This document shows, one piece after another, positions 4,984 to 62,245 of a stretch of DNA of 64,000 nt. The position numbers and the translations under genes are program-made. The notes beneath the pieces were generated by a model that did no database searches, was not told where the DNA came from, and worked only from the letters and a program-made list of their open reading frames with translations. Position 1 is the first letter of the stretch; every line of letters begins with the position of its first letter. The DNA comes from an uncultured Gammaproteobacteria bacterium (GTDB lineage Bacteria > Pseudomonadota > Gammaproteobacteria > JAGOUU01). The stretch covers positions 352 through 64,351 of the forward strand of contig CAZSRF010000002.1 in the NCBI GenBank assembly GCA_964609155.1. The letters run 5' to 3'.

Positions 4984-5145
4984 ATGAAGAAAAAATTAAG
5001 CTTAGTGTCAATAATCTTAGCTAGTTTGGCTCTAGGTGCATGCGCGCCTTATATGAACAGACAGTTGGTAGAAGAAGTGCCTAGAAAACTAGACGCTCCT
5101 TGTGTTCCAACTAAAGACGGTATGTGTGCTGGTTGGTCTAAATAG
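4984..5145 (+). CDS. small predicted lipoprotein (53 aa; MKKKLSLVSIILASLALGAC...)
   Basis: Not in the ORF track because it is under 60 aa. ATG at 4984, stop at 5143-5145. Signal peptide with lipobox LALGAC. Lies in an otherwise empty intergenic gap. Confidence 0.4.
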   Translation: MKKKLSLVSIILASLALGACAPYMNRQLVEEVPRKLDAPCVPTKDGMCAGWSK

Positions 5146-5162
5146 TAGTCAAGTTAAATTAG

Positions 5163-8400: not shown

Positions 8401-9858
8401 ATGTCTAATTTAAGCAGTGCGGATGTTAATATTAAACAAAATTTCGATCAAGAACTTATTGATATTGCTCAATATGTTGATCAATATCAAATAACAAATC
8501 AATTAGCTTATGATACTGCTTATTACTGTCTCATGGATTCAATAGCTTGCGCTATTCAAGCTTTAGATTTTCCAGAGTGCACTAAGCATCTTGGTCCTTA
8601 TATACCAGGCACTATAGTACCTAATGGGGCTCGTGTATTAGGCACTTCTTATGTGCTAGATCCAGTAAAAGCAGCTTATGATAATGGTGTGCTTATAAGA
8701 TGGTTGGACTATAATGATACCTGGCTTGCCCAAGAGTGGGGGCATCCATCAGATAATTTAGGTGGTATTTTAGCTGTGGCGGATTTTTTGTCAAGACAAC
8801 AATTAGCTAATAACAAGTCTTGCCTAACCGTTAAAGATATTTTAACGTATTCTATTAAGGCACATGAAGTACAAGGTGGCACAGCTTTGGAAAATTGCTT
8901 TAACAAAGTAGGGTTGGATCATGTTGTTTTAGTAAAGTTAGCCTCAACCGCAGTGATTACCAAAATGCTAGGTGGAACGTTAAAAGATATAATTAGCGCA
9001 ATATCGCAAGTTTGGGTGGATGGACAAAGTTTACGTACGTACCGTCATGCACCTAACACAGGATCTAGAAAATCATGGGCTGCTGGAGATGCAACCTCTC
9101 GTGCGGTAAAGCTAGCAATGCTTACATTAAAAGGTGAAACAGGTTATCCAAGTGCTTTAAGTGCTAAAAATTGGGGATTTTATGATGTTTGTTTCAAACA
9201 AAATAAATTGAAGTATCCTGATTATTTTAAATTTTCTAGTTATGTTATGGAAAATATTTTATTTAAAATTTCTTTTCCAGCTGAATTTCATGCGCAGACT
9301 GCAGCTGAAGCTGCAATAAAGCTTCATTCTGCAGTTAAAAATAAGTTGTCAGATATTTCTAAGATATTATTAACAACACAAGAACCAGCTATAAGAATTA
9401 TTAGTAAAAATGGTCCATTACATAATCCTGCTGATAGAGATCATTGTTTGCAATATATTGTTGCAGTTGGTTTATTATATGGTGATCTTACAGCAAGACA
9501 TTATGAAGACTCTGTAGCTAATGATCATCGTATAGATGCTTTACGTGAATGTATGATAGTTTCAGAAGATAAACAATTGACTGCCGATTACTATGATCCA
9601 AACAAACGTGCTATTGGCAACAGTGTACAAGTATATTTTAATGATGGCAGTTGTACTGAAAAGGTTTCAATTGATTATCCGGTTGGTCATAAAAATAGAC
9701 GACAAGAAGGGTTACCTTTGTTAGACGAGAAGTTTAGAGCAAGTATAAGCAACTACTATAGTAAACGTCAGTCTACTCGTATCATTGATTTATTTAGTAA
9801 TAAAGAGCAGTTATTAAAAATGCCTGTGTATGAGCTTATGGATAATTTAATAATATAG
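8401..9858 (+). CDS. prpD: 2-methylcitrate dehydratase
   Basis: About 485 aa MmgE/PrpD-like protein. Third gene of the prpBCD arrangement. Confidence 0.85.
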   Translation: MSNLSSADVNIKQNFDQELIDIAQYVDQYQITNQLAYDTAYYCLMDSIACAIQALDFPECTKHLGPYIPGTIVPNGARVLGTSYVLDPVKAAYDNGVLIRWLDYNDTWLAQEWGHPSDNLGGILAVADFLSRQQLANNKSCLTVKDILTYSIKAHEVQGGTALENCFNKVGLDHVVLVKLASTAVITKMLGGTLKDIISAISQVWVDGQSLRTYRHAPNTGSRKSWAAGDATSRAVKLAMLTLKGETGYPSALSAKNWGFYDVCFKQNKLKYPDYFKFSSYVMENILFKISFPAEFHAQTAAEAAIKLHSAVKNKLSDISKILLTTQEPAIRIISKNGPLHNPADRDHCLQYIVAVGLLYGDLTARHYEDSVANDHRIDALRECMIVSEDKQLTADYYDPNKRAIGNSVQVYFNDGSCTEKVSIDYPVGHKNRRQEGLPLLDEKFRASISNYYSKRQSTRIIDLFSNKEQLLKMPVYELMDNLII

Positions 9859-10003
9859 AATATTCAAAAATAATTATTGCTTTCTAGAGTAACAAGAACT
9901 TAGGTAGCAGCAAGCCTCTTATACCTATTAACGAGCAGATATCTTGCACAGAAGCTCTGGGTTAGTTAACAGCTAGTTGAAACTTAATTATACTTGTGTA
10001 TAA

Positions 10004-10636
10004 TTGGTTATTATGAATAAGTTGTACACAATAAGCCAAGCAGCAACCCATTATGGTGTCTCATCCTCTACTTTAAGAAGATGGGAGCGTGAAGGCAAGC
10101 TAATACCAGATAGGACAAAGGGAAAACAACGAAGATATAAACTAGTAGACGAATGTGAATCTAAACTCCAAGTAGCACCAGATAAAAAAGTTACTGTAGC
10201 CTACGCTAGAGTTAGTAGTCACGATCAAAAAGCAGATTTAGAGCGTCAAAAGCAATTACTAGAAATGTATTGTGCTTCGCAAGGTTGGCAATTTAAAGTT
10301 ATTTCCGATCTTGGTAGTGGCATGAACTACAATAAACGTGGCCTAAAAGAGTTGTTGTCGGTAATTTTAAACGGCGACATAAGTCGTTTAGTATTAACAC
10401 ATAAAGATAGATTATTAAGATTTGGTGCTGAGTTAATATTTTCACTATGTGAACGTCGAGGTGTAGAAGTAGTTATTATTAATAAAGGCGATGAACCTAG
10501 TTTCGAAGAAGATTTAGCAAAAGACGTATTGGAAATAATCACAGTGTTTTCAGCTAGATTATATGGTTCAAGAAGTAAGAAAAATAAAAAGCTATTAGAA
10601 AATCTCAAGGAAGCGGCAAGTGTTGTTGGTTCATAA
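10004..10636 (+). CDS. tnpA: IS607-family transposase TnpA (MerR-like HTH fused to serine-recombinase/resolvase catalytic domain)
   Basis: N-terminal HTH (YTISQAATHYGVSSSTLRRWEREGKL). Resolvase catalytic region VAYARVSSHDQKADLERQ with the catalytic Ser. Confidence 0.85.
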   Translation: MVIMNKLYTISQAATHYGVSSSTLRRWEREGKLIPDRTKGKQRRYKLVDECESKLQVAPDKKVTVAYARVSSHDQKADLERQKQLLEMYCASQGWQFKVISDLGSGMNYNKRGLKELLSVILNGDISRLVLTHKDRLLRFGAELIFSLCERRGVEVVIINKGDEPSFEEDLAKDVLEIITVFSARLYGSRSKKNKKLLENLKEAASVVGS

Positions 10637-11801
10637 AATTGAGCTTAAAGTCAATAATAAACAAGCAAATTATTTTGCTAAAGCTTGTGGTGTAGCGAGA
10701 TTTGCCTATAACTGGGCGTTAGATGAATGGCAAAAGCAGTACAAAGCTGGTCAAAAACCTAATGAGATTAATCTGCGGAAATATCTAAATTCTATAAAAA
10801 ACGAACAATTTCCATGGATGTTAGAAGTCACCAAAGTAGCCCCGCAGCAGGCAATCAAGAATTTAGGCACAGCATTTCAAAGATTTTTTAATCATCAGGG
10901 CAAGTACCCAAAATTTAAGAAAAAGGGAATTCACGATTCTTTTCGAGCTGACAATGGCCCAGCTAAGGTTGGGGCGGATGCTGTACAGATTCTTGATAAA
11001 AAGATTAATTTACCAAGAATTGGTTGGGTAAGATTAAAAGAAAGATTGCGATTTACTGGTCAAATAAAATCAGTGGTAATTTCAAGACGCGCAAACCGCT
11101 GGTATGCGGCAATAAGTGTAGATATCACAGAGCTAAACCAAGTGCACAAAAACCAAGGCATTGTTGGTGTAGATTTAGGTATTAAGACACTGGCCACATT
11201 ATCAACAGGTGAGCCAATAGTGGGGCCACGGGCGCACAAACAGTTGTTAACAAGAGTGAGAAAATATTCTAAAAAGTTATCCAGATGTAGAAAAGGCAGC
11301 AAGAATTATAAAAAAGCGAGACTCAAACTTAGTAAAACTCATGCCAAGATACGAGATATTAGAATAGATAATCTACATAAATTAACTACTGATTTAGCAC
11401 TGAAGTTCAATACAATAGGCATAGAAGATTTAAATATAAGCGGCATGGTTAGAAATAAGAAACTAGCTAGGCATATTATGGATGGGTCATTCTATGAATT
11501 TCGACGTCAGCTTGAGTATAAAGCTAAATGGTATGGTTCAACAGTAGTGGTTGTCGGTAGATTTTATCCATCGAGTAAGCTGTGCCATTGTTGTAATACT
11601 ATAAATCAAGAGCTGACACTTAGCGATAGGCAGTGGCAATGCAATAATTGTAATAAGCTACATGATAGAGATATCAATGCAGCTATAAATATCGCCAACT
11701 ATGCAAGGCATGCCAATATGATTGTTAGTACACAGAGCTCCTGTGGAATTTACGCTTGCGGAGAGAAAAGCGCTGGCGCAGCAGTTAACACTGCTGCGTG
11801 A
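10620..11801 (+). CDS. tnpB: TnpB (OrfB) RuvC-like RNA-guided endonuclease with C-terminal zinc finger
   Basis: N-terminus MLLVHKIELKVNNKQANYF is typical of TnpB. It has a RuvC-like split domain and a CxxC...CxxC zinc finger (CHCCN...CNNCNKLHDRDINAAINIA). It overlaps tnpA by 17 nt. Confidence 0.85.
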   Translation: MLLVHKIELKVNNKQANYFAKACGVARFAYNWALDEWQKQYKAGQKPNEINLRKYLNSIKNEQFPWMLEVTKVAPQQAIKNLGTAFQRFFNHQGKYPKFKKKGIHDSFRADNGPAKVGADAVQILDKKINLPRIGWVRLKERLRFTGQIKSVVISRRANRWYAAISVDITELNQVHKNQGIVGVDLGIKTLATLSTGEPIVGPRAHKQLLTRVRKYSKKLSRCRKGSKNYKKARLKLSKTHAKIRDIRIDNLHKLTTDLALKFNTIGIEDLNISGMVRNKKLARHIMDGSFYEFRRQLEYKAKWYGSTVVVVGRFYPSSKLCHCCNTINQELTLSDRQWQCNNCNKLHDRDINAAINIANYARHANMIVSTQSSCGIYACGEKSAGAAVNTAA

Positions 11802-12075
11802 AACTATGTCTCGTTGAAACAAGAATTTAACACTAAATTTGATCACTCTGAACAAGTATGATAAGGTTTAGATAAGTTTGAAAGAGCGGTTATGAGTCCT
11901 TTCTTCGCATTTGAGCGATAAGTACTGACTGAATATTTGCCTGTTGATAATCTAACATCTTGTTTTGTTATCAATCTATATGTTATGTTGATTAATAAAT
12001 ATATTTTTAGTATTTACTATTTTAATCGATTACTGTAAACTACAAAATATAACATGCAGCTATTCAACTAGGTAT

Positions 12076-18278: not shown

Positions 18279-18603
18279 GTCATACCGCAGGGCTGTCCAG
18301 CGAATAGTTGTAAACTTAAATATAATTACCGGGGATAGCGTCATCCTACAATTTTTCTGTTCGAAATATTGAAAAGAAGTAATAACTTTCACAGAAAAAT
18401 TTTAGGATCCAGAGGCGATCTTGCTTATTGGTGCCAATAAGGTAGATTTTTCCTGGATCCTTGAATTTTTTTGCGAATTTTTAGTGTTCTTTTCAAGCTC
18501 TCGAGCAAAAAAATCCAAGGATGACGTCGTTGAGGGTATGTTATTTAATCTTCCAACTATTCATCGGACAGCCCTGTGTCATACCGGCCGAGGAGCCGGT
18601 GTC
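18279..18603. repeat. About 325-bp MITE-like element with roughly 28-bp terminal inverted repeats
   Basis: Left end GTCATACCGCAGGGCTGTCCAGCGAATA. Right end TATTCATCGGACAGCCCTGTGTCATACC, which is its reverse complement with a few mismatches. It contains an internal inverted repeat GGATCC...TTATTGGTGCCAATAA...GGATCC at 18405-18460 and the hairpin module CCGGCCGAGGAGCCGG at 18585-18600. Confidence 0.6.
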
Positions 18604-18617
18604 TTGTGGTATAAATC

Positions 18618-19934
18618 TTAACCATCCCAAACTTGGTTAGTAGCAATAAACAATGCAGCTCCAATCGTCCAGTCTATATCGTGCTTAGGAATTAAAAAGT
18701 TATGGTAATCATCTGGCATGTTATAACCATTATTTAATAGTATTTTTAAATAAGTAGCGTCAAAACAAGCCTCATTAAGTTCTGCTTTGCTAATATTGGG
18801 GAATTTACTTTTAAATGCTTCATGGTTTGCATGGCAACTATCAGGAATATTTTTAATTAGATCGACAGGAAGCTTAGAATTAAAAAAATTAAAATTATAA
18901 TAATATCCAGAAGCAGCAACAAATTTCATATTGCTTTTTAATGCGGACTTGATAGCTTTAGCAATTGTTAGGTGTTCTTTTTTATTTTGCAAATAAATTT
19001 TAATAAGATCGCCGCATCTAAAATAATTAAAATTATTTGTTTTATTTATCTCATGGGGTGTGTTGACACCTGTTTCTGGGATGCTGCATTCTTTGTTGGC
19101 TTGTTTAGAATCATAAGTAGCAATATTCTTTTTAGTTTGTACTAACCCATAACCTAAAATACTATTGCTATAAATAGTGTATTCTGAGCTATCAAATTTT
19201 AGTTTAAATAAATTTTTTTTAAGATCCGAGTTTTTTTTATTCTTCTTTTCATTATATTCCATAGCAACTTGAGTAGAGGCTCCACCCATATCTAGAGCAG
19301 CTATGGTAGGTTTATTAAGTTGAATGGTTTGAAGTTTATAATTAATACTTAGCCAATCAAAAATTCCTTCCAATTCTCCTGGTATAGTCTTTGCTATTAT
19401 CATGTCAGGGTTATGGCCTGAATTAATAATAACCTGTTTGATTTTTTTATAAAGTTCGTATTGTTGTTTGGCGTGATGTAATCGCATGCCGGCAGTGGCG
19501 TAAAAATATATTGGTATCTCTTTTATTTCAATATGTAGGTTTTTTAATTGACCATCTAACTTTTTATATAGAGGTAAAATATGCTCGGAAATATTTTGAT
19601 TTTGATGGTCGTGACAGTAATCAGCGATTGCATGTTTATCATTGCTTTTAGCTATGGCAATTTCAGTAAGCTTTGGAATGGCGTTAGGAGACTCTTTATT
19701 TTTATCTCTTTGCACATGATAGGCATGCATCCTTGAGCCAGTGCTTCCTAGATCAACGATAATAATATTTTTATGTGGATTTTTCTTGATAGATAAATCA
19801 TCAGGAGATACACAGTAATTAGGTTGACTTTCTTTTGGTTTGGAAAGATAGTCTTTTAAATTAAACCCGGCGAGCAGTGTTTCCGCACCAAGAGAAGAAA
19901 GCAATAAAAACAGACAGATACAAATCTTTCGCAT
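18618..19934 (-). CDS. secreted ecto-NTPDase / apyrase (GDA1/CD39 family)
   Basis: Signal peptide, then apyrase conserved region 1 (IIIVDLGSTGSRMHAYH) and later ACR-like blocks (ALDMGGASTQVA). A eukaryote-type enzyme known in Legionella. Confidence 0.8.
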   Translation of the reverse strand: MRKICICLFLLLSSLGAETLLAGFNLKDYLSKPKESQPNYCVSPDDLSIKKNPHKNIIIVDLGSTGSRMHAYHVQRDKNKESPNAIPKLTEIAIAKSNDKHAIADYCHDHQNQNISEHILPLYKKLDGQLKNLHIEIKEIPIYFYATAGMRLHHAKQQYELYKKIKQVIINSGHNPDMIIAKTIPGELEGIFDWLSINYKLQTIQLNKPTIAALDMGGASTQVAMEYNEKKNKKNSDLKKNLFKLKFDSSEYTIYSNSILGYGLVQTKKNIATYDSKQANKECSIPETGVNTPHEINKTNNFNYFRCGDLIKIYLQNKKEHLTIAKAIKSALKSNMKFVAASGYYYNFNFFNSKLPVDLIKNIPDSCHANHEAFKSKFPNISKAELNEACFDATYLKILLNNGYNMPDDYHNFLIPKHDIDWTIGAALFIATNQVWDG

Positions 19935-32130: not shown

Positions 32131-32552
32131 AATTGCTCCATGTTAATTAAAGGTTTTTTGACCTGTTAAATTCTACCGGAATAATCAGAATATACAAATA
32201 GGACTTTTGTTTAGGGGCTACACGCGCGGGAAAGCTGTTGATAATTCCCCAAGAAAATTAGGCATCTTCAGGAGAATTGCAGGTGAGCGGAGTTAGATCT
32301 TAGTCAACTCTTACATAGTATAGAGGTAGTAAATTGCACTAGCGACAGCAATAAGCAAAAGAGCTGTTATAGTTACTCCATCAGAGAAATCATTGGGTCT
32401 ATTACCGTGTTCATCAAAGTGTTCTTGATTGTTCATAGATTAAGCTTAAAACAGTTTAAAATTAACTGCTATTGTATCAAATAATTTATATTTAGCATTT
32501 ATTTTAAAAAAATATTTATCCAGTTGATTTAAAGCCTATCAGAACTATTAGA

Positions 32553-32663
32553 ACTTACGCAAAAGCTTGTCGTACCGGCCAAAGAGCCAGATCTTGCAGA
32601 AAAGATCTCAGTTCTGCGCACTCGCTTGACCGAGACGACAACTTACAGTTATTCTGCGTAAAT
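32553..32663. repeat. About 110-bp MITE/REP-like element, copy C (TIRs ACTTACGCA...TGCGTAA)
   Basis: In reverse-complement orientation it aligns with the copies at 41056-41170 and 62144-62245: shared core GTCRTCTCGGTCAAGCG...GCAAGAT...GGCCGGTAYGACA. Confidence 0.6.
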
Positions 32664-39144: not shown

Positions 39145-41055
39145 ATGAGTAATAAAAATAAAATAATACTAGGAGTTAGTTTAACTTTTTTAGTAGTAAA
39201 CTTTGCTAATGCCGCTGATAAAATTTCACTTAACACTAACAGCTTGATTACTAAAAATAATAATACTACTTTAATTAAACAATTGGGTAATTCTTATAAA
39301 TTCAAACAAATTAAAAAAGTTGAGCTACCCAATGGTAAATTTAGATATAAATTTACACAATACTATAATGATATTCCAATATGGGATAGTGGAGTTGTAA
39401 GTAATAAAGAAAATATTAGTGATGTAAATAGCAATGATGTTTTACATGGCAGCTTATTGATTAATCTGGAAAAAGATATCTCTTTAGGTAAAGCTGGTTT
39501 AACTGAAAGCCAAGCGCAAGAAATTGCGATTAAAGCAGCTGGCGTTAAAGATAGTTCTACTGTAAAACATATGAACAATGTACAGTATATCAAAAATTAT
39601 GCTGATATGGCAAAAACAGTGTATGTTATAGATTTTATTATAGAAGCAGATAATACTATTAAAAGTCGTCCATTTTTTATTATTGACGCCAATACAGGTG
39701 AGGTCTTGGAAAAATGGGAAGGTTTAAATACAGCTAATTATGGTAAGGGTACAGGGCCTGGGGGCAATGTCAAATCAGGTAAATATTATTACGGCAAAGA
39801 CTATGGTAATCTTGTAGTAGATGTTAATGGTACATCTTGTACAATGAGTAGCCCTAATGTTGATACTTATGACATGAAGCAAAAGACTACAGGAACAGGG
39901 ACTTTACATCAATTTACTTGTTATGAGAATGCTTATAAAGAAATAAATGGTGGATATAGTCCGATAAATGATGCTCACTATTTTGGAAATGTTGTGTATG
40001 ACATGTATAAAGAATGGTATAAAACGGCACCATTAACTTTTAAATTAAAAATGCGTGTTCATTATGGTAATAATTATGATAATGCCATGTGGGATGGTCA
40101 GCAAATGAGCTTTGGTGATGGTGGTGCTACTTTCTACCCATTAGTTTCACAGGATGTTGTGGGGCATGAGGTAAGCCATGGTTTTACTCAGCAAAACTCA
40201 AATCTTGTTTATGAGAAACAACCTGGTGGTATAAATGAAGCTTTTTCTGATATGGCTGGCGAAGCTTCTGAATACTACTTTAATAAAAATAAAACAGAGG
40301 AAGCTAAGGTAGATTGGTTAGTTGGTGAATCCATTATGAAGGGTGCTAAAGGTAAAGCGTTAAGATACTTTTCGGAACCAACCAAAGATGGCAGTTCTAT
40401 CAGCAATGCAAAAGATTATAGTGATAGCTTAGATGTACACCAAACGAGTGGTGTTTATAATAAAGCATTCTATACTCTATCTAATATGACAAACTGGGAT
40501 CTTAAGAAAGCGTTTGATGCTTTTGTCTTAGCTAATCAAGTATATTGGACACAAAATACTGGTTATGATCAAGGTGCATGTGGTGTTAAAAATGCTGCAG
40601 CTGATTTAGGTTATGCAGCAGCTGATGTTATTAGTGCATTTAAAGTTGTTGGTGTAAATGCAAGTTGTAGCAATGATCCAACAGATCCGACAGATCCGAC
40701 AGATCCAACCGATCCTACTCCAGCGCCTGAGGCTATTGAGTTACAAAAAGCAGTTCCTGTGTATAGCCTTTCTGGAAATGCTGGAAGTAAAAAACTTTAC
40801 TATATGGACGTAGCTGGATCTAGAATTGGTGTCTTAAGTTTGTGGAATTTTGGTGGTGTAGGGGCCCCTTCTATGCAGGTGGCTTTAAATCGTATGCCAA
40901 CCAATGCTGACTATGATTGTACCTCTAGTTCTGATTTGGAATTAGGTAATTATAGATCGTGCTTAATATTCACACCAAAAGCGGGTAGATATTTTATAAC
41001 TGTCAATGGTGACAATGCTTATCAAGATGTTACTTTATGGGGCAGTTATCAATAG
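39145..41055 (+). CDS. secreted M4 (thermolysin/vibriolysin-like) zinc metalloprotease with C-terminal PT-repeat linker and PPC-like domain
   Basis: Signal peptide. HEXXH motif VVGHEVSHGF and a downstream GINEAFSD glutamate. DPTDPTDPTDPTDPT linker followed by about 110 aa of C-terminal domain. Confidence 0.85.
   Translation: MSNKNKIILGVSLTFLVVNFANAADKISLNTNSLITKNNNTTLIKQLGNSYKFKQIKKVELPNGKFRYKFTQYYNDIPIWDSGVVSNKENISDVNSNDVLHGSLLINLEKDISLGKAGLTESQAQEIAIKAAGVKDSSTVKHMNNVQYIKNYADMAKTVYVIDFIIEADNTIKSRPFFIIDANTGEVLEKWEGLNTANYGKGTGPGGNVKSGKYYYGKDYGNLVVDVNGTSCTMSSPNVDTYDMKQKTTGTGTLHQFTCYENAYKEINGGYSPINDAHYFGNVVYDMYKEWYKTAPLTFKLKMRVHYGNNYDNAMWDGQQMSFGDGGATFYPLVSQDVVGHEVSHGFTQQNSNLVYEKQPGGINEAFSDMAGEASEYYFNKNKTEEAKVDWLVGESIMKGAKGKALRYFSEPTKDGSSISNAKDYSDSLDVHQTSGVYNKAFYTLSNMTNWDLKKAFDAFVLANQVYWTQNTGYDQGACGVKNAAADLGYAAADVISAFKVVGVNASCSNDPTDPTDPTDPTDPTPAPEAIELQKAVPVYSLSGNAGSKKLYYMDVAGSRIGVLSLWNFGGVGAPSMQVALNRMPTNADYDCTSSSDLELGNYRSCLIFTPKAGRYFITVNGDNAYQDVTLWGSYQ
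40675..40719 (+). repeat. 5 x 9-bp tandem repeat (GATCCRACA) encoding (DPT)5 linker
   Basis: Direct imperfect tandem copies seen in the sequence, inside the protease ORF. Confidence 0.8.
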
Positions 41056-41170
41056 ACTTACGCAGAATGATTCTAGCTTGTCATCTCGGTCAAGCACGAA
41101 GTGCATAGAACCATGATCTTTTTTGCAAGATACCGGCTCCTCGGCCGGTATGACAGGTTTTTATGTAGCT
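41056..41170. repeat. About 110-bp MITE/REP-like element, copy A, with GC-rich hairpin TACCGGCTCCTCGGCCGGTA
   Basis: Lies exactly between the protease stop (41053-41055) and the convergent sensor-kinase stop (41161-41163). It aligns with copies B and C. Confidence 0.6.
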
Positions 41171-62143: not shown

Positions 62144-62245
62144 ACTTATGAACAATGATTGTAAACTGCCATCTCGGTCAAGCGCAGTGCGCTGAACCAA
62201 GATTCTCAGCTGCAAGATACGGCTGTATAACAAGCTTTTGCTAGC
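62144..62245. repeat. About 100-bp MITE/REP-like element, copy B (hairpin module deleted)
   Basis: ACTTATGAACAATGATTGTAAACTGCCATCTCGGTCAAGCGCAGTGCGCTGAACCAAGATTCTCAGCTGCAAGATACGGCTG...ACAAGCTTTTGCTA aligns with copies A and C. The pnuC stop codon lies at its right end. Confidence 0.55.

Follow-up and report, generated by a model that had tools for sequence, protein, structure and literature searches.

The window, i.e., the whole 64-kb stretch of DNA that was analysed (positions 1-64000), carries genes for a Legionella-type ProA metalloprotease, a BarA/LetS-type sensor kinase, PpsA, DegP and PnuC, together with effector- or eukaryote-like genes for a GDA1/CD39 NTPDase, an ankyrin-repeat protein, a Sel1-repeat protein and a TPR-methyltransferase (18618-19934, 50199-50879, 55241-56425, 56504-57925). 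The best named homologues of BarA are those of Candidatus Berkiella, with approx. 46% identity. The eukaryote- and effector-like genes, together with the Legionella-type ProA and the LetS/BarA kinase, point to an intracellular lifestyle. The host is an uncultured low-GC gammaproteobacterium whose gene content resembles that of Legionella and Berkiella, and this content is typical of intracellular, protist-associated kinds. The window also holds a group of related short repeats and two other mobile insertions, as follows:

32553-32663, minus strand: copy A, the best-preserved full-length element, with all five helices fully paired
41056-41170, plus strand: copy B, with the best GC hairpin, ATACCGGC-TCCTCG-GCCGGTAT
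62144 to approx. 62241, plus strand: copy C, degenerate, with approx. 9-10 nt of the GC hairpin deleted and an inner stem of 4/7
18577-18606, minus strand: solo GC hairpin module of 30 nt, TGTCATACCGGCCGAGGAGCCGGTGTCTTG, 97% complementary to that of copy B (E = 5e-9)
approx. 9897-9967, minus strand: decayed copy, downstream of prpD, nhmmer E of approx. 4e-4 with a profile of copies A, B and C
18289-18576, no strand given: near-palindromic MITE of a second family, 288 bp, nested in the solo hairpin module
9968-11895 (plus or minus approx. 35 nt), plus strand: IS607-family element, in or beside the decayed copy, at or just inside its edge

A 202-aa ORF and degP/htrA diverge from the intergenic region that contains copy A, while copy B fills the entire gap between the convergent genes for a proA-like M4 protease (stop codon at 41053-41055) and a barA/letS-like kinase (stop codon at 41161-41163). 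Copy C separates pnuC from the following gene, which is on the same strand as pnuC, and its 3' inverted repeat is truncated at ...CTTTTG beside the pnuC stop codon (62241-62243), and the solo module is located between the convergent ppsA and GDA1/CD39 NTPDase genes. In the decayed copy, segments of the inverted repeat, the hairpin and the centre are still recognisable, and the sequence possibly resumes after the IS607 element at approx. 11889-11935, although this is uncertain. The orientation of the copies relative to flanking transcription is inconsistent. The first-pass annotation had described all copies as intergenic, which is nearly correct, except that the 3' inverted repeat of B includes the barA-like stop codon and the final two codons (41161-41169), and that C, at its 3' end, touches or overlaps the stop codon of pnuC.

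The same sequence of approx. 105-117 nt is present at all three intervals A, B and C. In pairwise blastn inside the window, A and B match with 78% identity over 105 nt (E = 3e-18), A and C with 71-76% (E = 2e-9), and B and C with 75% (E = 2e-8); counted over aligned pairs, the identity equals 79-82%. The 12-mer TCTCGGTCAAGC is invariant in the three copies and absent from the rest of the window, while a 35-nt consensus core was matched in 0 of 100 shuffles. Therefore, since the pairwise similarity, the 12-mer and the core all go far beyond shuffled controls, a comparison that the first-pass annotation had named as one that might refute the family, the three intervals are genuine copies of one repeat, well above chance. 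Three copies sharing a core is also what had first been recognised, and their limits hold, with the end of C placed at approx. 62241; the solo module and the decayed copy come in addition to the at least three copies counted then. The copies were likewise correctly seen as richer in GC than the AT-rich background (A 0.47, B 0.47 and C 0.44, against 0.326 for the window, i.e., 44-47% against 32.6%).

The copies are 97-117 bp long and noncoding, as is usual for MITEs (below approx. 500 bp). All of their ORFs are of 30 aa or fewer and have no ATG start, shuffles contain stop-free frames just as often, and no frame is conserved across the translations of the three copies. An identity as a coding insertion similar to the Rickettsia palindromic elements was rejected for this absence of a conserved frame, and an integron attC site was rejected by sequence inspection, as RYYYAAC/GTTRRRY ends are missing.

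Five helices can be recognised in the element by a structural alignment made by hand and verified against the window sequence; RNAalifold on four sequences gave an uninformative structure. The outer helix H1 is a 12-nt terminal inverted repeat, (AG)ACTTACGCAGAA / TTTTGCGTAAGT, which reads ATTTACGCAGAA / TTTTGCGTAAGT over 12 bp in copy A, and which pairs at 12/12 positions in A, 10/12 in B and 6/12 in C. Terminal inverted repeats of the kind that define MITEs are thus present, though intact in A only, and the inverted repeat ACTTACGCA/TGCGTAAGT of the first-pass annotation is borne out in A and falls short in B and C. H2 is a 7-bp inner stem, TTGTCRT / AYGACAA (7/7 in A and in B, 4/7 in C), H5 a left-arm hairpin, GCRC-loop-GYGC, which adjoins the invariant CTCGGTCAAGC, and H4 a small centre hairpin, ATCTT / AAGAT. 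H3 is the GC-rich hairpin module, ACCGGC-N6-GCCGGT, which is short by approx. 9-10 nt in C and which also occurs alone, as a REP-like unit, at 18577-18606. Copy A contains all of these parts. A missing CCGGCTCCTCGGCCGG hairpin had been attributed to copy B; actually, it is the third copy (62144) that lacks the hairpin, whereas B (41056) has the best version. Two of the helices show double (compensatory) changes: in H2, a G-C pair in A against A-T in B and C, and in H5, an A-T pair in B against G-C in A and C. With three full copies only, these changes are anecdotal, i.e., suggestive and not statistical.

Folding, which had been recommended as a check on the elements, set one copy apart from shuffles and not the others. 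The RNA of copy A folds at -44.8 kcal/mol (z = -3.9), a stability that none of 200 shuffles reached, and its DNA fold gave z = -3.1. In B (z = -1.8) and C (z = -0.9), the folds do not stand out from those of shuffles, in line with the decay of these copies. The weak folding of B and C would also agree with the idea that there is no real family here, and that GC-rich intergenic hairpins resemble each other by chance or represent conserved single-copy regulatory sequence. Against this idea stand pairwise E values of 1e-8 to 1e-18 over approx. 100 nt, the invariant 12-mer with a common order of several modules, the presence or absence of the element at orthologous sites, and its absence from other genera (both described below), so that we regard it as refuted, with practically no probability left to it.

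Around A, B and C, direct repeats of at least 3 nt are missing, and a target-site duplication was not recognised for any copy; the junction, when compared with an empty site at C, is ambiguous by a few nt. The flanks read YAG|ACTTAC, in which YAG is often a TAG stop codon. An autonomous element with matching ends (AGACTTACGCAGAA) does not occur in the window or in the approx. 120 kb of the close relative; in the window, the sole transposase genes are those of the IS607 element, whose ends are unrelated. In Pfam searches, neither a RAYT/Y1_Tnp nor a DDE transposase was found among the window ORFs scanned or in approx. 120 kb of the close relative.

These features bear directly on the main rival reading, according to which the family is a REP/REPIN system. 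The unit would then be a hairpin of approx. 30 nt headed by TTGTCAT, and the 110-bp element an inverted doublet (REPIN) that is mobilised as single-stranded DNA by a RAYT (Y1/HUH) encoded elsewhere. Several observations agree with this: the hairpin module was found alone at 18577-18606, as a single palindromic unit within the 20-40 nt typical of REPs; both arms of the element start with TTGTCAT, followed by NCGGNCAA; a target duplication was not found, in line with HUH enzymes; copy A folds as a whole into a single long hairpin; and the copies lie just downstream of genes, as REPs do. However, the conserved GTAG/GGAG head at the hairpins is absent in every copy, the arms diverge strongly past approx. 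15 nt, and outside the arms there is a further terminal inverted repeat of 12 nt, for which REPINs have no need. Additionally, neither the window nor the relative's loci contain a Y1_Tnp/RAYT gene, and the copy density here is modest. We consider a REPIN system unlikely, albeit deserving of more attention than the other alternatives discussed here.

The history of the individual sites can be followed in a close relative (approx. 90% protein identity), which was recovered from several SRA assemblies, and whose loci are syntenic with approx. 6-64 kb of the window and reach approx. 6 kb past its right end. Site C is cleanly empty in three independent samples of the relative, with flanks approx. 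90% or more identical and the element of approx. 97 nt absent. With three full and two partial copies in 64 kb and an empty site C in the relative, the family shows both the dispersed copies and the presence/absence polymorphism that are expected of MITEs. The empty site could equally reflect an insertion in the window genome or a precise deletion in the relative. The copies differ by approx. 20% from each other, while the flanks differ by only approx. 7-10% from those of the relative; with copy divergence thus larger than a flank divergence of at most 10%, an old insertion that was lost in the relative is quite possible.

At site A, the relative carries a remnant of 35-40 nt, which consists of terminal-repeat-like sequence and half of a hairpin. 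An orientation flip was considered here and is not claimed, as the remnant scores 26 in either orientation. In the same intergenic region, at 32200-32295, some stretches are rich in GC (up to 57% over 40 nt); these are window-specific insertions relative to the approx. 90% relative and unrelated to the family. An ORF of 41 aa at 32311-32436 on the minus strand, with copy A approx. 120 nt upstream of it, ends in a hydrophobic segment at the C-terminal side; since this ORF is much better conserved than the intergenic DNA around it, and is a called gene in the relative, it is probably a real small membrane protein. Fragments of the element are also present in the relative within the intergenic region of the decayed copy (L012 15508-15541).

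At site B, the relative has the same element in inverted orientation (nhmmer score of 35.4 bits on the opposite strand against 16.7 on the same strand), and the outer boundaries are identical in both genomes. The C-terminus of ProA reads ...LWGSYQ* in both, with the terminal repeat directly after it, and BarA is of equal length in both, with the last three residues being AAT* in one and VLA* in the other; in each orientation these residues lie in sequence derived from the terminal repeat. Taken together, these features of site B make an in-place inversion more likely than independent insertions.

To hypothesize further, the element could be an actively invertible cassette instead of dead selfish DNA, one that flips within populations through recombination between its inverted repeats. 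Each orientation would then give the BarA/LetS-like global regulator a different three-residue C-terminus and stop codon, and with each flip, two genes associated with virulence would change in the structure of their 3' end or UTR, or in their antisense transcription. In the relative as assembled from SRR14234075, two contigs end inside the inverted element B (L011 20404-20438; L002 13043-13072) with an overlap of approx. 30 nt (k-1), and a repeat or an orientation polymorphism would produce such a break in a de Bruijn assembly; in SRR13287453, a contig reads through the inverted element. We regard active flipping as very improbable.

Beyond the close relative, no copy of the family was found in 46 kb of a relative with 72% identity (MAG GCA_018061105.1) or in 17.5 kb of another with 67%. 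When GTDB representative genomes, JGI metagenomes and IMG/VR were scanned for the motif, chance matches in unrelated high-GC DNA were all that came up, and blastn against plasmid and phage collections gave no match. Conserved single-copy sequence in other genera had been named in the first-pass annotation as an outcome that would speak against a repeat family, and no true match to such sequence appeared in any collection. Since copies are missing in both distant relatives and true matches in the public collections, the family appears, from these comparisons of sequence, to be confined to a species- or genus-level lineage.

The 72% relative has a plain bidirectional terminator hairpin at the site where the proA/barA junction of the window carries the element, and this replacement of a canonical terminator raises the question of a regulatory role. 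According to such a reading, the repeats would be a selected cis-acting RNA or DNA module (a 3'-UTR stabiliser, a terminator or an outward promoter) that spread mainly by recombination. The compensatory changes in two helices are in line with it. Additionally, the reverse complement of the invariant 12-mer, GCTTGACCGAGA, carries a -35-like TTGACC; in copy A, TTGACC-18-TATTCT forms a weak promoter-like site that points at degP, and the putative outward promoter faces the next gene in both A and C. On the other hand, simple scans of both strands detected no intrinsic terminator within the three copies or next to them, with the T-run (CTTTTG) placed 8-10 nt past the GC hairpin, and no promoter in the copies except for the weak site in A. 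The orientation to flanking transcription varies among the copies, the copies are visibly decaying, and Rfam gave no match, neither at gathering thresholds anywhere in the window (positions 1-64000), where tRNA, rRNA and other families likewise failed to reach the gathering score, nor in E-value mode over copy A. Since the close relative has no element at C, a stub at A and an inverted element at B, a cis-regulatory role is unlikely to be the primary explanation, and we give it a low probability. An sRNA of the RsmY/RsmZ type under the adjacent LetS/BarA was also considered, and rejected, because GGA is found in only some of the hairpin loops, the orientation is inconsistent and Rfam shows no match.

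Taken together, the repeats are in our opinion best explained as a lineage-specific, non-autonomous and noncoding palindromic family of MITE/REP-like kind, previously uncatalogued and now decaying, and we consider this reading likely. The earlier suggestion of small mobile or recombinogenic repeats of the REP/MITE type agrees with it, as the copies are noncoding, structured, dispersed, limited to one lineage and polymorphic at orthologous sites in the close relative. In this MITE/REP-like family, the copies would have been spread in trans by a transposase encoded outside the window, and would have landed right after or onto stop codons at the 3' ends of genes, as well as in intergenic DNA. At proA/barA, the element provides the stop codon and the last codons of BarA. 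The family would since have been mostly decaying, with copies deleted, eroded (to solo hairpins) or inverted in place, and with others serving as landing pads for other mobile elements. Where they lie within transcribed 3' UTRs or intergenic RNA, the copies would form stable stem-loops.

The use as landing pads is suggested by the second-family MITE and the IS607 element, the two other mobile insertions of the window, since each lies within or next to a family member; this is a post hoc observation. REP-like hairpins are known to behave as insertion targets, and both insertions match this behaviour. The 288-bp MITE has terminal inverted repeats of approx. 23 bp (CAGGGCTGTCC...GAATAGTTG) and is 71% self-complementary. 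A perfect 10-bp direct repeat, TGTCATACCG, lies on either side of it, and this duplication corresponds to the first 10 nt of the hairpin module, repeated at 18279-18288 as the target-site duplication of the MITE. The MITE is present as a single copy in the window and the relatives' loci compared, and is missing from the approx. 90% relative by alignment. At its own ppsA/NTPDase junction, the relative has an unrelated perfect hairpin of 44 nt, CCTCCCCTATCCTCC...GGAGGATAGGGGAGG (L012, approx. 8950-9054).

The IS607-family element encodes a TnpA serine recombinase (10004-10636; Pfam Resolvase and MerR) and a TnpB (10620-11801; Pfam OrfB_IS605 and a Cas12f1-like TNB). GGTTA is present at both candidate junctions, and the element is likewise missing from the approx. 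90% relative by alignment. Its 3' approx. 190 nt should, by prediction, encode an omega-RNA. A derivation of the repeat from the ends of IS607/TnpB elements or from the omega-RNA was rejected, as the similarity is no longer than 8-9-mers.

Of the known systems, QMITE2 of Coxiella burnetii is, judged by its described features, the closest functional analogue. As GTDB genomes gave no true match to the motif, a homology of sequence between the two is improbable. QMITE2 elements are 150-190 bp long, with inverted repeats of 17-29 nt, direct repeats of 7-11 nt and an internal GTAG REP (PMC5896051). They occur in full-size and REP-only versions (PMC5896051, Wachter et al. 2018), lie in 3' UTRs where they overlap C-termini by a few bp, serve as IS targets and are inverted between strains (PMC5896051). 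The family described here resembles them as a small structured palindrome of an intracellular gammaproteobacterium, with full and REP-only forms, located mainly in 3' UTRs and intergenic DNA, where it reaches a few bp into the C-terminal ends of genes; another mobile element lands in its hairpin, some copies are inverted, and it looks old and inactive. Unlike QMITE2, the element here is 105-117 bp long, with an inverted repeat of approx. 12 nt and neither 7-11-nt direct repeats nor a GTAG head, and its invaders are a MITE with TIR/TSD and an IS607 element, while those of QMITE2 are IS1111. Since the defining features of QMITE2 (size, length of the inverted repeat, direct repeats and GTAG REP) are missing, the family is an analogue of QMITE2 and not a member.

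The REPs and REPINs of Pseudomonas and E. coli are similar in being short, GC-rich, imperfect palindromes just past genes, which occur as singlets and as inverted doublets in a long hairpin; REPs and REPINs make no target duplication, and none was found here. The family differs from them in having no GTAG/GGAG head, in arms that are unlike past approx. 15 nt, in its additional outer terminal inverted repeats, and in the absence of a RAYT gene from the DNA examined. The Correia elements (CREE) of Neisseria are MITEs of approx. 100-150 bp, for which in-place inversion has been reported (PMC10969869); further likenesses are possible outward promoter-like hexamers and a co-transcribed stem-loop. 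However, the inverted repeats of Correia elements measure 26 bp, and a TA duplication and an IHF site also belong to these elements; none of these were found here: the IHF motif WATCAANNNNTTR is in no copy, TA...TA flanks are absent, and the inverted repeat is 12 nt. Rickettsia palindromic elements (RPEs) are also palindromes of approx. 100-150 bp from an AT-rich intracellular bacterium, and can give codons to host genes. Unlike the present family, they insert in-frame within genes and encode conserved peptides, while here only the last 2-3 codons of barA and its stop are derived from the element; in addition, the lineage differs at the phylum level and the sequence is unrelated.

The understanding of small bacterial repeats is left unchanged by this family, which adds an uncatalogued one from intracellular, protist-associated gammaproteobacteria of a clade about which little is known. 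Its value is that one pair of genomes displays the main stages in the life of such an element, i.e., insertion at a stop codon, donation of codons, inversion, erosion to solo hairpins and reuse as a landing pad; of these, the flip of the element in place between proA and barA stands out most, together with the landing of other mobile DNA in the copies. The repeats account for contig breaks and annotation oddities in MAGs of the lineage, and they are potential strain markers.

Two minor observations concern other parts of the window. Synteny with the close relative breaks at approx. 45210, beside an ABC substrate-binding gene, where the relative has a giant gene of 3373 aa with DUF3638/OTU domains (L002 1-8900), and the window agrees with the 72% and 67% relatives in having an ORF of approx. 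650 aa and YhhN; in the close relative, a terminal-repeat-like fragment, ATCTGCGTAAGT (L002 8870-8882), is found at a distance of 25-40 nt from this break. Finally, an unlisted short ORF at 4985-5146 (MKKKLSLVSIILASLALGAC...), located between Slt-like and YkuD-like genes, has a lipoprotein-type signal peptide and a lipobox.
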